The notes under the pieces were generated by a model. That model was not told the origin of the DNA. It did no database searches and saw only the letters and a list, made by a program, of their open reading frames with translations. Both the position numbers and the translations under genes were made by a program. 41,879 nt of DNA from Eubacteriales bacterium (GTDB lineage Bacteria > Bacillota > Clostridia > Oscillospirales > CAG-272): assembly GCA_045531105.1 (NCBI GenBank), contig JAZSDJ010000058.1:1-41879 (forward strand), given 5' to 3'. Of this stretch, positions 17,451 through 20,996 are shown piece by piece. Numbering within the stretch: position 1 is the stretch's first letter; every line of letters begins with the position of its first letter.

Positions 17451-17486
17451 GACATCTTCACGACATTGTGAAGGTGTCATTTTTTT
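17451..17486 (+). terminator. intrinsic terminator
   Basis: GACATCTTCAC 17451-17461 pairs over 11 bp with GTGAAGGTGTC 17468-17478, then ATTTTTTT. Confidence 0.8.
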
Positions 17487-17494
17487 GTTATCAT
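17466..17494 (+). promoter_or_regulatory. possible weaker promoter overlapping the terminator
   Basis: TTGTGA 17466-17471, 17 nt, TATCAT 17489-17494. Confidence 0.35.
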
Positions 17495-17513
17495 ATAACC
17501 AAGAGGTGATGAT

Positions 17514-17651
17514 ATGAACATAACCAAATTTATTAAGTCGCACAAAGAATTGAACGAACTGCCATTCCTTGTGGTTTTCCGTACCATTCAAATATTGCGT
17601 GAAAAAGGTATGATAAAGGGTTTTGATGATGTGGATAGAGTACAACCCTAA
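17514..17651 (+). CDS. hypothetical small protein (45 aa)
   Basis: ATG 17514 after AAGAGGTG. Below the ORF-track cutoff. Confidence 0.4.
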   Translation: MNITKFIKSHKELNELPFLVVFRTIQILREKGMIKGFDDVDRVQP

Positions 17652-18003
17652 TCCGCTTGGCTTGCGTGTAGGTGATTGTGTTATTCGTGCCATATCAAAG
17701 GCTTTAGATATGCCGTGGGAAAAAACATATATTGACCTATGCGTTCAAGGTTTTATGATGGGAGACCTTGCCTCGTCAAATGCCGTGTGGAGTGCCTACC
17801 TAAAACACAAAGGCTTCAAGCGTTGCACTATTCAAGATTGCCCCGACTGTTATACCGTTGAGGACTTTTGCCGAGAACACCCAAAGGGCGTTTACGTTAT
17901 CGGTACAGGCTCACACGCAGTTGCCGTTGTTGATGGTTGCGTTTTCGATGCGTGGAACAGTCTGCGAGAAACACCCGTGTATTATTTTGAAAAAGGAGAG
18001 TAA
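17623..18003 (+). CDS. papain/transglutaminase-like Cys-His-Asp fold protein (putative)
   Basis: NPNPLGLRVGDCVIRAISKAL (Cys) ... GTGSHAVAVVDGCVFDAWNS (His, Asp). About 125 aa. Confidence 0.4.
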   Translation: MMMWIEYNPNPLGLRVGDCVIRAISKALDMPWEKTYIDLCVQGFMMGDLASSNAVWSAYLKHKGFKRCTIQDCPDCYTVEDFCREHPKGVYVIGTGSHAVAVVDGCVFDAWNSLRETPVYYFEKGE

Positions 18004-18005
18004 AT

Positions 18006-18518
18006 ATGGCTTACCCTAATTATTATCAAGGCGGTTTTTATCCGCAGTATCAAAATGGAGCAGTCCCCGATATGCTAAATCAGTATAAGGGGCAGTATCA
18101 GCAGATGCCAATGCAACAGCCGATGATGCAACAGCCCGTTCAGCAGATGCCGATACAGTCAAACGGTGGGCTGATTTGGGTTGACAATGAGGAGCAAGCA
18201 AAGAATTATCTTGTCGCTCCGAATAATGTTGTGCCGATGTTTGATAAAAATTCTTCGCAAATGTATATAAAAAGTGCCGACGGAGCAGGAATGCCGACAT
18301 TTAAGAAATACAAGTTGACAGATTTTGAGGATGCCGACAATGCCCCTAAAACGCCCGTAGAGCATAAATGCACTTGCGGTGATAAGTTTGTATTTAAAAA
18401 AGATTTCCAAGCCTTACGGAGCGAATTTGAGGCTCTACGGAACGAATTAGAAGAATTAAAGGCAAAACCAAAAACAAAAACTTCTAAAAAGGCGAGTGAG
18501 GAGGTAACAGATGGCTAA
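18006..18518 (+). CDS. Gln/Pro/Met-rich N-terminal low-complexity protein
   Basis: YYQGGFYPQYQNG...QYKGQYQQMPMQQPMMQQPVQQMPIQ, then a globular segment and a C-terminal coiled coil. Confidence 0.55.
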   Translation: MAYPNYYQGGFYPQYQNGAVPDMLNQYKGQYQQMPMQQPMMQQPVQQMPIQSNGGLIWVDNEEQAKNYLVAPNNVVPMFDKNSSQMYIKSADGAGMPTFKKYKLTDFEDADNAPKTPVEHKCTCGDKFVFKKDFQALRSEFEALRNELEELKAKPKTKTSKKASEEVTDG

Positions 18519-18723
18519 CAATCTTTATAATCAGTTTGGAAGTGCGCCAGTATCGAATGAAATGGCGCAGATTGTAAAACAAGTACAGGATTTTCAAAAA
18601 ACATTTAAGGGAAATGCCAAAGCACAGGTGGAACAGATGGTGGCTTCTGGTATCATTCCGCAGAATGTGTTTAATGAATTGGCACATCAAGCCAATCAAA
18701 TAATGGCTTTTATGCCAAAATAA
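18511..18723 (+). CDS. hypothetical helical protein (70 aa)
   Basis: ORF overlaps the upstream stop. No motif recognised. Confidence 0.45.
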   Translation: MANNLYNQFGSAPVSNEMAQIVKQVQDFQKTFKGNAKAQVEQMVASGIIPQNVFNELAHQANQIMAFMPK

Positions 18724-18788
18724 CTATGGCTTCAAAATCGGGTGCACACGATTTTTGGCAAATAAATATATTATAGGAGAAATAAAAA

Positions 18789-19616
18789 ATGATGGAAACA
18801 GGATATTCCCTCGCTGACATTGCGGCGGCTACTGGCAATAGTGGCAATAACAACAATGATGGTTGGGGCGGAAACAACGGTTGGTGGATTATTATTCTGC
18901 TTCTCGCCCTCGGTCGTGGTTATGGCTTTGGCGGTGGCTACGGCGGCGGTAATGGTGGCGGTTATGGTCAGCCCATCGTGATCGACAGCGGTAAGGGTGG
19001 CTCTTGTGGCTGTTGCTCCCCTTGCGCTACTCAGGCTGATCTTGCGGCAGGCTTTAACAACTCCGCAGTTCTTGCAAACCTCAATGACATTCAACTCGGA
19101 CAGGCGGCTATTCAACAGACACTTTGTCAGGGCTTCAATGGCGTAAATACTGCCATTCTTCAAAATGGCTACAACACACAGGCGGGCTTTAACGGACTTT
19201 CTCATCAGCTTTCCGATTGTTGCTGTGCAACACAGAGAGCTATTGATGGTGTAAAGTACGCTATTGCGGAGCAGTCTTGCGATACTCGTCACACTATTTA
19301 CAATAGCACTCGTGACATAATCGACAATGCAAATGCAAATAGCAGAGCAATTCTTGACTTCTTGACAAAGGACAAGATTGACACGCTTCAGTCTGAAAAC
19401 CTTGCGCTTCGCTTCAGAGCTTCACAGAGCGAGCAGAACGCATTTATCACCGCTAATCAGCAGGCGCAGACCGCTGAACTTATCCGCAGACTTGGTGCAG
19501 ATTGCCCCACTCCTGCGTATGTGGTCCAACCCCCTCAGCCTGTCACCTTCCCCACTAACTGTTGCGGACAGGTAAATTATGCGGCTACGGGTTGCGGTTG
19601 CAACGGCGGTTTCTAA
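18789..19616 (+). CDS. Gly-rich, Cys-cluster membrane-anchored protein
   Basis: GNNGWWIIILLLALGRGYGFGGGYGGGNGGGYG (TM plus Gly/Tyr tract). Cys clusters GSCGCCSPC, SDCCCATQ, TNCCGQ..GCGCNGGF. Confidence 0.55.
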   Translation: MMETGYSLADIAAATGNSGNNNNDGWGGNNGWWIIILLLALGRGYGFGGGYGGGNGGGYGQPIVIDSGKGGSCGCCSPCATQADLAAGFNNSAVLANLNDIQLGQAAIQQTLCQGFNGVNTAILQNGYNTQAGFNGLSHQLSDCCCATQRAIDGVKYAIAEQSCDTRHTIYNSTRDIIDNANANSRAILDFLTKDKIDTLQSENLALRFRASQSEQNAFITANQQAQTAELIRRLGADCPTPAYVVQPPQPVTFPTNCCGQVNYAATGCGCNGGF

Positions 19617-19763
19617 AAAATCAATAGATAAAAGATTGACTACTTTCGCATTTAGCGGATGTTCGGGCGATAAGGTTACTGCCCGATAATGACTTTCGGG
19701 GAGCAAACGGGCAAAAGTAGACGGATGCTCCCCTCTGTTTTATTATGAAAAGGAGATTTTATT

Positions 19764-20222
19764 ATGGCGGCTGAATATAGCTATCCCCTCGTGCAGACAG
19801 TTGCAGAGGACGAAAATATTATATTCCTTGACGGTGACAGATGTTGCAAGAAAGGATATATCACACACAGAAGCGGATCGGGTGTGTTCCGTCTTAAAGG
19901 AGCAGGAAACGCTTGCAAGACCGTTTACAGAGTTACTTTTAACGCAAATATAGCGGTAAGTGCAGCGGCTGATGGCGGTGTTGTCGGTCCGATAAGCGTG
20001 GCAATTCAAGAGGATGGAGAAACCCTTCAGAATGCTGTCGCAACCGTTACGCCAACCGTTGCAGAGGCGTTTTTCAACGTGTCATTAAGTACGTTTATTA
20101 TCATCCCTTGCGGTTGTTGCGTGACCGTATCGGTAGAAAATGTAAGTGTTGGAGCGGCAGGAGCGGCAGGCTCTGCGATTGATGTTACCAATGCGAACAT
20201 CATCTTTGACCGTGTAGCGTGA
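19764..20222 (+). CDS. BclA C-terminal-domain-like (C1q/TNF-like jelly roll) protein
   Basis: TVYRVTFNANIAVSAAADGG...ISVAIQEDGETL...SAIDVTNANIIFDRVA parallels the BclA CTD (GFYKITVIANTATAS...IQVNGVPV...SASIIIEKVA). Confidence 0.45.
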   Translation: MAAEYSYPLVQTVAEDENIIFLDGDRCCKKGYITHRSGSGVFRLKGAGNACKTVYRVTFNANIAVSAAADGGVVGPISVAIQEDGETLQNAVATVTPTVAEAFFNVSLSTFIIIPCGCCVTVSVENVSVGAAGAAGSAIDVTNANIIFDRVA

Positions 20223-20238
20223 GAAAGGAGAAAACACA

Positions 20239-20718
20239 ATGAAACATCTTGAAGAACTCAAAGAAGTTGTAAAAAGAGAACTTGAAAAGTTTGGCAAGCA
20301 GGGCGACATTTCCGTATCAAGCCTTGACAAAATCCATAAACTCAGTGATTTGTACAAAAATCTCTGCAAAATCGAAATGCTCGAAGAAGAAGCCGAGGGC
20401 GGTTATTCTGAGGCGAGAGGTGGCAGAGGTCGCGGTCGTTCTTCCTACGAAACGGGCGGTTCGTCTTACGATGACGATATGATGTACTCTGAGCGCAGAG
20501 GCAGAGGCAGAAACGCAAAGCGTGACTCTATGGGCAGATATTCTTCCGAGGGTGGCTCTTATGAGGGCGGTTCTTATGAAAGGGGCGGTCAAGGCGGATA
20601 TTCTCGCGACGAGGCTACCGATTGGATGATGCGTGAACTTGGTTCTATGATGGAAGATGCCGACCCAAAGCAACGAGAGGCTCTCAAAAAGTGCATGAGA
20701 GAGTTGGAAAGGGACTAA
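20239..20718 (+). CDS. helical protein with RGG / Ser-Tyr-Gly low-complexity core
   Basis: ARGGRGRGRSSYETGGSSYDDD...RRGRGRNAKRDSMGRYSSEGGSYEGGSYERGGQGGYSRDE, flanked by helical ends. Confidence 0.55.
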   Translation: MKHLEELKEVVKRELEKFGKQGDISVSSLDKIHKLSDLYKNLCKIEMLEEEAEGGYSEARGGRGRGRSSYETGGSSYDDDMMYSERRGRGRNAKRDSMGRYSSEGGSYEGGSYERGGQGGYSRDEATDWMMRELGSMMEDADPKQREALKKCMRELERD

Positions 20719-20963
20719 CCCAAACAAGCGGCGGTGTAAAGTCAACGCAATTTGAAGATAAAACACTCGAAAAACAGACAAATGATTATAGCGAGCTTGA
20801 CATCTTCCCTGCTTTACAAAAGTACAAAGACAAACACAATACCGCCAACTTGCAAAAATTGATGGTTGAAATTTTGGAATTTTGCCGTTCCGTATATGCA
20901 AGCACGCAGAATGAGGCAGAGCGCAAAATTTACCATTCAATGATTGAAAAATTGAATAAATAA
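20691..20963 (+). CDS. hypothetical protein
   Basis: ORF in the track. Start uncertain: ATG 20691 overlaps the upstream gene by 28 nt with a weak RBS. Confidence 0.35.
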   Translation: MHERVGKGLTQTSGGVKSTQFEDKTLEKQTNDYSELDIFPALQKYKDKHNTANLQKLMVEILEFCRSVYASTQNEAERKIYHSMIEKLNK

Positions 20964-20967
20964 AATT

Positions 20968-20996
20968 AGAGCGACAAAACTGTCGCTCTTTTTATT
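20968..20996 (+). terminator. intrinsic terminator
   Basis: AGAGCGACA 20968-20976 pairs with TGTCGCTCT 20981-20989, then TTTTATT. Confidence 0.85.

Follow-up and report, generated by a model that had tools for sequence, protein, structure and literature searches.

Described protein sets that come closest to the locus reported here are those of the spore coat and exosporium (GerQ/Tgl, ExsY/CotY, CdeC/CdeM), the Ena spore appendages and FUS-type scaffolds. The locus lies on contig JAZSDJ010000058.1 of an Eubacteriales bacterium (GenBank assembly GCA_045531105.1), of which positions 1 to 41,879, termed the window, were analysed. Like the spore coat sets and Ena, it combines Gln-rich, Cys-rich and jelly-roll proteins with a small thiol enzyme, signal peptides are not evident and assembly is apparently cytoplasmic; unlike these, it is phage-borne, its enzyme is not Tgl-like and no homology was detected beyond a BclA_C-like fold. 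With FUS-type scaffolds it shares an uncharged Tyr/Gln/Pro-rich tract and an Arg/Gly/Ser/Tyr-rich tract, both of conserved composition, but here the tracts are split over separate small phage proteins (Q and R, see below), and are accompanied by a membrane anchor.

The window is a siphovirus-like genome of ~42 kb with practically all genes on the + strand, and its close relatives are contigs binned with metagenome-assembled genomes (MAGs) of Acutalibacteraceae and other Clostridia. The region studied makes up the main part of a conserved phage module with its own regulation, H-S-C-Q-h-T-B-R-E, a characteristic feature of siphophages infecting Clostridia of the gut and rumen (Table 1). The letters denote a helix-turn-helix (HTH) protein (H), a 45-amino-acid (aa) protein (S), a Cys-His-Asp enzyme (C), a Q-rich protein (Q), a 70-aa protein (h), a 275-aa membrane protein (T), a 152-aa β protein (B), an RGG protein (R) and a 90-aa protein (E). 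The existence, extent and conservation of this module are solid.

Conservation and genomic setting of the module

Gene co-occurrence was counted in B-carrying loci with at least 3.2 kb of sequence upstream and at least 0.7 kb downstream of B (n = 116). The 61 loci from IMG/VR contained T in 61, C in 58, Q in 56 and R in 50 cases, with a collinear, same-strand arrangement in 58; the 55 loci from GTDB contained T in 55, C in 54, Q in 51 and R in 50, and 54 were collinear on the same strand. Pooled, B was accompanied by T in 116/116, C in 112/116, Q in 107/116 and R in 100/116 loci, order and strand being the same in 112/116; C, Q and R were present in 82–98% of B loci. The short genes were detected less often, probably because of their length, with h found in 76/116 loci and an H homolog directly upstream of the cassette in 81/116 loci with room. 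Every cassette open reading frame (ORF) had homologs at the equivalent relative position in other phages.

Scanning with the B family revealed 427 relatives in IMG/VR and 100 in GTDB genomes, the latter nearly all from gut or rumen Clostridia MAGs. The families amount to 2803 homologs for B, at least 8000 for C and 1272 clusters at 50% identity for T. In GenBank phage records searched by tblastn, T was found in 32 and B in 13, and the two were adjacent wherever both were present. Butyrivibrio phage Ceridwen carries C-Q-h-T-B-HNH-R, i.e., the same order with an HNH gene between B and R, behind a terminator, and the gene set recurs in the same order in Dulem viruses 33 and 35. For Ceridwen, whose host is Butyrivibrio fibrisolvens, no cycle other than the lytic one has been seen (PMC7372960). 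Across loci, the module proteins are only 30–50% identical; since synteny is kept at this divergence, linkage alone does not explain it. The order is permuted in two loci (L018 and L023), where T-B-R stands ahead of C-Q-h. In several phages, HNH-type homing endonuclease genes interrupt the module, recurrently at the boundary of h and T (L001, 6079–6942; L002, 4173–4823; L003, 4073–4624 on the − strand; L005, between h and T).

The initial annotation had described a self-contained operon of seven ORFs with a strong terminator at each end and had made its interpretation depend on recurrence of the genes in other phages. Both terminators (hairpins at 17446–17483 and 20968–20989), the self-contained operon and the recurrence were confirmed, and all seven ORFs were found on the + strand with the sequences quoted there; the module proved to be larger, also comprising H (17215–17430), the leader and E (20691–20963). 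The further statement that it is unrelated to virion, lysis or replication functions is unproven, as the module of relatives usually directly follows holin/endolysin genes. Clusters of this type, holin-like plus CHAP-type endolysin genes as named by reading representative sequences, were located within 4.5 kb upstream in 37/52 loci, and downstream of the module, either integrase and repressor genes on the opposite strand or replication genes were found. These flanks place the module at the junction of the late and early regions. In Dulem virus 35 (L004, 2934–3666), an ORF that we read as XhlA-like (coiled coil and C-terminal transmembrane segment) and a 93-aa transmembrane protein are encoded between C and H, physically tying the module to lysis-type genes.

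Searching Pfam, NCBIfam, PADLOC and PHROGs with all cassette proteins yielded matches only to PHROGs of 'unknown function', where C, Q, h, T and B are held as five separate families without assigned function. The initial claim that no phage system of this composition has been described thus held. In PADLOC, the only matches were to the 70-aa protein h, at an E-value of 0.01 or weaker, and no known defence system was recognised. A defence or anti-defence system was set aside in view of this result and of the occurrence of the module inside phage genomes, including one seen lytic only. A cluster for a ribosomally synthesised and post-translationally modified peptide or bacteriocin, combining a small peptide with a C39-like peptidase, was likewise set aside: the conserved neighbours showed no modification enzyme or transporter, and conservation of the 45-aa protein is confined to the close lineage.

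Proteins encoded by the cassette

C (phrog_3754) probably starts at the ATG at 17629, with which its N-terminus reads MWIEYNPNP like that of homologs. Its AlphaFold2 model, based on a 129-sequence alignment, reached a predicted local distance difference test (pLDDT) of 94.3 and a predicted template modelling score (pTM) of 0.88. In the model, Cys17 opens helix 17–26, His96 directly precedes strand 97–101 and Asp107 ends strand 104–107, and all three residues are invariant in the 129 C sequences. This conserved arrangement of a Cys at a helix N-terminus with His and Asp on adjacent strands is that of the papain superfamily, and the confident model predicts C to be a small papain-fold Cys-His-Asp enzyme closest to Josephin/C39-type peptidases. 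From Josephin-type deubiquitinases and C39 peptidases, with which it shares the arrangement, C differs by its length of only 124 aa, an extra CX2CX6CX2H motif and the absence of sequence matches to peptidase families.

A Foldseek search of the PDB returned the deubiquitinase Josephin-2 as the top, weak neighbour of C (E-value 0.29, probability 0.51, TM-score 0.47), followed by the weaker TssM, MERS PLpro and USP5; no transglutaminase was among the 50 PDB neighbours listed. In BFVD, 21 matches at an E-value ≤ 1e-3 were obtained, nearly all to uncharacterised proteins from phages of Pseudomonas, Enterococcus, Sphingomonas, Cellulophaga and other hosts, and a 'Peptidase C39 domain' protein stood lower down the list (E-value 0.026). 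C matched no Pfam or NCBIfam family, hence none for a transglutaminase or Tgl. By sequence, C was also found in Tsamsa-like Bacillus phages (in some as 'putative peptidase'), Geobacillus phage GBK2, Prevotella Lak megaphages and a Pseudomonas phage; neither T nor B was matched in these groups, and C stands there without a Q-rich partner. The CX2CX6CX2H motif, at residues 71–84, is conserved in the family and shows a β-strand/CPDC/helix layout with a weak glutaredoxin-like match; as judged from the sequence, it is probably a structural Zn site and may have a redox role.

Foldseek neighbours of B, obtained from a low-confidence AlphaFold2 model, were mostly of the TNF/C1q family (E-value ~1e-3, TM-score 0.44–0.50) and included CD40L, 4-1BBL, EDA, the C-terminal domain of Chlamydia Pgp3, Cbln1, BC2L-C and C1q. 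The window protein itself had no Pfam match at an E-value ≤ 1. Its ortholog in Dulem virus 35 (37% identical, same position in the module) aligned to the BclA_C profile (Pfam PF18573) over positions 13–127 of 128 with an E-value of 4.4e-7 and 30.3 bits, below the gathering score of 38 bits, which none of the tested relatives reached. Among B relatives, BclA_C matches were obtained for 2/65 (E-value ≤ 1; the second may be weak) and 1/70 sequences. An hhalign comparison of B with the C-terminal domain of Bacillus anthracis BclA, whose sequence was checked against PDB entries 2R6Q and 1WCK, was not significant (E-value 0.31), and tblastn with this domain hit no phage and only four plasmid records, too few for a BclA_C profile. 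B resembles BclA_C in size, all-β character, strand pattern and C-terminal motif; it differs in being phage-encoded and stand-alone, without collagen-like repeats (stalk) or exosporium leader, the domain filling the whole 152 aa, and in its conserved Cys residues, C118 and C119 of the invariant GCC motif. We conclude that B is probably a distant, stand-alone jelly roll of the BclA_C/TNF/C1q type, as suggested by model and sequence comparison.

In Q, the N-terminal tract has a median length of 40 aa and a composition of 32% Q+N, 14% P, 16% Y+F and 2% charged residues; it is followed by a small conserved β-rich domain (IWV...VAPN...Y.KS.D..GMP) and a coiled coil. Protein h contains 31% Q+N over 49 homologs. 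The core of R consists to 68% of R+G+S+Y over 68 homologs, with an RDSMGRY motif in 35/68, and is flanked by end regions read as helical. Conservation is stronger for composition than for sequence in Q, h and R and in the stretches flanking the T core, which keeps a condensate alive as an alternative; Tyr-rich and Arg/Gly-rich tracts make up the well-established sticker grammar behind FUS-type phase separation. No Pfam relatives were found for Q, h or R. Spore_GerQ was not matched by the window Q and is absent from the 16 Pfam families matched (E-value ≤ 0.01) by a mixed set including 33 Q members. Sequence searches of the PDB with single C, T and B sequences and with C, B and Q family profiles revealed nothing significant.

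T has a Trp-flanked hydrophobic core of ~12 residues, with 49% Gly before and 33% Gly after it. Beyond the core follow a Gln/Asn-rich domain, read as helical, CCC and a Pro-rich C-terminus ending in CGC; CCC is present in 64/69 and the C-terminal CxC in 61/69 members, at ~11 Cys per protein. Exported Firmicutes proteins reportedly avoid Cys, so the high Cys content of T favours a cytoplasmic location of the Cys-rich domain. Reading of the N-termini showed no signal peptide on any cassette partner. Five proteins of a mixed-family alignment, most likely T members, matched Pfam TMP_2 (best E-value 9.6e-6).

Homology of T to coliphage CAjan gp21, T1-like phage damhaus gp23 and Edwardsiella phage eiAU P858_08 was revealed by hhalign (probability 98.2%, E-value 4.7e-14). 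Their architecture is that of T: the N-terminus is hydrophobic and rich in Gly, LCxGF and CCC are present, and the Pro-rich C-terminus has Cys at its end. They differ in following a lateral tail fibre gene, which coliphage-type homologs always do directly on its 3′ side, and in their three downstream partners, for which no relationship to B or R could be detected. The eiAU protein has relatives in 132 phage records, and the annotated matches among the 50 listed are all 'hypothetical protein'. In T1-like, Seurat-like and eiAU phages, T is followed by three conserved small ORFs, all hypothetical: a His-rich one with a conserved C-terminal half, one of ~170 aa with a Pro-rich tail and one of 85 aa (L168, 3806–5985, CAjan gp21–25; L169, 3827–5651, damhaus gp23–20; L165, 2201–4055, eiAU). 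Homology of these ORFs to B or R was tested and none was found; the Gram-negative set looks like a second version of a T-centred module. In Clostridium phage CPD1 of C. perfringens (L002, 5532–5909), the gene after T encodes a different, β-rich protein of 125 aa, without Pfam match, with an N-terminal CX4CXCC tract that we take to be reminiscent of the Cys-rich connector of Ena subunits.

Boundaries, leader and neighbouring genes

The hairpin at the 5′ boundary has a 17-bp stem and a folding free energy (dG) of −23.5 kcal/mol (z −6.7), with 0/200 shuffled sequences being as stable; that at the 3′ boundary has a 9-bp stem with T-runs on both strands (dG −14.9, z −6.1). A GC-containing hairpin with T-run was thus found at both ends, with co-oriented genes between, as in an operon bounded by intrinsic terminators. 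About 50 nucleotides (nt) past the cassette terminator, at 21040–21068, lies a perfect TTGACA-17-TATAAT promoter with an upstream TG, which probably starts the replication/recombination operon and makes the 3′ boundary of the cassette sharp.

Table 1. Features of the module and marker genes of the window (single numbers are positions as given for the gene).
Feature	Position	Strand	Description
H	17215–17430	+	71-aa HTH protein resembling sigma-70 region 4
Phased boxes	17421–17456	+	Period ~11 nt; CATAAAAT twice, TGTCATT, AAAATGACAT; directly 5′ of the hairpin and running into it
Leader hairpin	17446–17483	+	Hairpin and T-run; intrinsic terminator between H and the cassette
Promoter-like site	17466–17494	+	TTGTGA-17-TATCAT, extended TG; overlaps the hairpin, followed by Shine-Dalgarno AAGAGGTGA
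S	17514–17651	+	45 aa; strong Shine-Dalgarno; 3′ end overlaps start of C
C	17629–18003	+	124 aa; predicted papain-fold Cys-His-Asp enzyme; GDCVIRA...GSHAVAVVDG; ORF opens at 17623 (126 aa)
Q	18006–18518	+	170 aa; QYQQMPMQQPMMQQPVQQMPIQ; phrog_21718
h	18511–18723	+	70 aa, Gln-rich, presumed helical; start overlaps end of Q; phrog_22984
T	18789–19616	+	275 aa; hydrophobic segment, Gly/Tyr-rich, CGCC/CCC/CC/CGC; phrog_16490
B	19764–20222	+	152 aa, all-β; invariant GCC; ends in IIFDRVA; phrog_20016
R	20239–20718	+	159 aa; RGG, SYEGGSYERGG; phrog_28802 in relatives (inferred assignment)
E	20691–20963	+	90 aa; last gene of the module; GTG start, uncertain
Closing terminator	20968–20989	both	Bidirectional intrinsic terminator
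Scaffold	3810		
Major head protein	4430		
Tape measure protein	8879		949 aa
Exonuclease	16153		Followed by H at 17215, then the cassette
Sak4	21757		Preceded by a Zn-ribbon protein 3′ of the cassette
Helicase	25626		
M23 endolysin	29209		
Terminase	30774		
Portal	32844		
Minor head protein	40308		

The boxes 5′ of the hairpin, which in the window can also be given as CATAAAAT, TGTCATT and ATGACAT, are candidate binding sites for H. Other loci have boxes TTGCAC-N5-TTGCAC or TGATAC-N5-TGATAC at the same place, again as a repeat of ~11 nt, and a hairpin with T-run starting within 60 nt after the stop codon of H was found in ~35/48 loci, with the boxes on its 5′ side. H showed weak matches to Sigma70_r4/HTH_23 and sigma70-ECF, and we infer that it is a candidate regulator of the cassette, acting via the boxes by activation or read-through. 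This layout, a small HTH gene followed by repeated boxes and a leader terminator, resembles that of lambda Q-type antiterminators and RinA/Alt-type activators; H differs from lambda Q, RinA, ArpU and Alt in its size of ~70 aa, its restriction to sigma region 4 and the lack of homology. The leader matched no family in an Rfam search of the region, and no sporulation-type promoter was evident in it by eye. Its boxes followed by hairpin and T-run may represent a regulatory element not described before, serving for activator binding or as a target of antitermination. The leader loop sequence TTCATT recurs in six loci, and the leader set includes L001, L017, L029, L035 and L057. A promoter embedded in the terminator was rejected as a general feature, since, apart from the window, it was seen in no more than a subset of loci (~23% of loci versus 6% of control segments for a sigma-70-like promoter overlapping the hairpin).

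At the gene level, S is kept at the same position in relatives down to ~30% identity, within the close lineage only, and E matches the hidden Markov model of a family located 3′ of R in other loci (E-value 1.9e-6). Long antisense ORFs of the cassette region are, in our judgement, by-products of composition. The T-B gap (19617–19763) is unusually long, with 147 nt versus ~10–15 nt in Ceridwen and other loci, and contains a weak promoter-like site at 19718–19746. Elsewhere in the window, a GC-rich block (~0.52) after the portal gene, at 34156–36498, encodes fibre-like ORFs that include a brief GXY stretch of collagen type as well as the motif KTL(T/S)(I/V)EGKAADAKAVGDAL, repeated in ORFs of 259 aa and 145 aa; these may be head or side fibres.

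Possible roles of the module

The data support a single late operon with a switch of its own; so far as can be judged, its products reside in the cytoplasm or membrane, are multivalent and contain much Cys and low-complexity sequence. Tentatively, and as a possibility rather than an expectation, we propose that they are expressed late and build a multivalent protein assembly that T nucleates and tethers to the membrane, with C as a processing hydrolase. H would be made from the preceding late (tail/lysis) transcript, bind the phased boxes and turn the cassette on late, either activating the weak hairpin-overlapping promoter or permitting read-through. T would enter the cytoplasmic membrane via its short Trp-flanked segment, the Cys-rich domain remaining in the cytoplasm, and B trimers, the uncharged, Tyr/Gln-rich Q and h and the Arg/Gly/Tyr-rich R would gather on it. 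The T-bound proteins might form a membrane-tethered meshwork or condensate, in which Cys-metal or disulfide bonds may hold the parts together, and the Cys-His-Asp hydrolase C would trim or de-conjugate a component instead of cross-linking. The assembly would serve the late stage of the phage, in egress, progeny protection or exclusion, not the host spore.

Several points weigh against this proposal. Interaction among the cassette products is proposed from their co-occurrence. The nine-stranded AlphaFold2 model of B, built on an alignment of close homologs only, is of low confidence (pLDDT 52.7, pTM 0.52). C occurs alone in many unrelated phages and T occurs in coliphages without B, R or Q, so the parts may have separable roles. 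Neither flank of the T core carries positive charge and the core spans only those ~12 residues, which makes its topology ambiguous. The regulatory model is loose, because the promoter after H was seen in only the ~23% of loci given above. Dulem virus 35 has the module in its head gene block, flanked by the minor and the major capsid gene, and this position would fit a virion role as well.

Such a virion role, which we regard as rather unlikely, would make B a fibre-head-like jelly roll and T a tape-measure-like protein whose hydrophobic Gly-rich segment enters the target membrane on infection; these two and the low-complexity proteins would be minor virion or assembly parts, for instance decoration, side fibre or ejection proteins, with C as their maturation peptidase. 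TNF/C1q-type heads are common at fibre tips, and the TMP_2 matches, the position of coliphage T homologs after the lateral tail fibre gene and that of the module at the end of the late region also argue for it; opposed to this, the module is a terminator-bounded unit of its own with its own regulator, B has no N-terminal attachment domain and a tape measure protein of 949 aa is already encoded elsewhere in the window. Moreover, the listed T homologs, including those of the much-studied T1-like phages, are annotated as hypothetical only, and the virion proteome of Vid5, a phage in which a T homolog is not established, lists no such protein. Our literature search revealed nothing relevant on phage-encoded exosporium or coat proteins or on virion proteomics of T-carrying phages. 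We assign similarly low likelihood to T being a membrane effector, i.e., a lysis or egress accessory or a tape-measure-mimicking agent of superinfection exclusion that stops DNA from entering, with T by itself as the active part and the other genes as helpers or unrelated passengers. The exclusion proteins HK97 gp15 and Ltp act on tape measure-dependent DNA entry, and T has TMP_2-like similarity; holin/endolysin genes stand immediately upstream in most loci, the XhlA-like ORF and membrane protein of Dulem virus 35 are interleaved with the module, and T is its most widely distributed member, found in Gram-negative phages without the others. What this explanation leaves unaccounted for is the constant B-T pairing and the fixed order with C, Q and R in most loci, and no cassette protein showed similarity to holin, spanin or exclusion families.

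An arrangement of unrelated small accessory genes (morons) travelling together by linkage only is hardly credible given the order and co-occurrence at 30–50% identity, which persist over different phage backbones and genomic positions, even though C and T each occur elsewhere without the others and the module splits or permutes (L018, L023) and takes HNH interruptions. Very unlikely, too, is the cross-linked spore coat or exosporium-like layer of the initial annotation, in which a small transglutaminase would act on the Q-rich protein next to Cys-rich and BclA-type building blocks. The distant BclA_C likeness of B, the conserved Cys clusters of T and B, the conserved Gln-rich tract of Q, the many Clostridia among the host lineages and the CPD1 β protein with its CX4CXCC tract next to T agree with that suggestion. 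It is contradicted by the occurrence of the T family in coliphages, so that the function conserved here cannot lie in the spore coat or exosporium. Butyrivibrio fibrisolvens is not known to sporulate, and carriage of the module by the lytic-only Ceridwen makes a spore-coat role unlikely. The leader shows no evident sporulation-type promoter, C, Q, T and R match no transglutaminase, Tgl or GerQ family in Pfam, and the structural neighbours of C, which is also present in Prevotella and Pseudomonas phages, are peptidases and isopeptidases. From the initial assignments, the papain fold with invariant triad remains, the neighbours being of deubiquitinase/C39 type instead of transglutaminases; the BclA resemblance survives as a probable TNF/C1q jelly roll below the Pfam cut-off, and the parallel to GerQ/Tgl and CdeC lapses, as homology to Tgl, GerQ or CdeC was not found.

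Returning to the T-nucleated assembly, a more specific form of it, which we judge to be quite unlikely, is a membrane-tethered condensate or matrix made by small siphophages of anaerobic gut bacteria when infection is about to end, with eukaryote-like Tyr/Gln versus Arg/Gly stickers provided by Q, h and R, a B trimer as hub, T as anchor, C as protease and H as switch. This would be a new phage-made intracellular structure, e.g., a viroplasm-like site or an occlusion-like progeny matrix, whose T anchor would be of ancient origin and common to T1-like coliphages as well.

Gut and rumen metagenomes contain thousands of homologs of the module families, which makes this a common module; their members are annotated as hypothetical and lack a Pfam, NCBIfam or PADLOC model. 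Its rigid synteny despite the low sequence identity points to a multi-protein machine or structure new to phage biology. Entry points are offered by the cultivable phage Ceridwen, which carries the full module, and by the T1-like and Seurat-like phages of E. coli K-12, which possess the T family and are open to routine knock-out, localisation and proteomic work. Even a role as virion accessory or exclusion device would supply annotation for a large block of viral dark matter; if it forms a condensate or cross-linked matrix, assembly driven by low-complexity sequence and BclA/TNF-type building blocks would extend to ordinary tailed phages.

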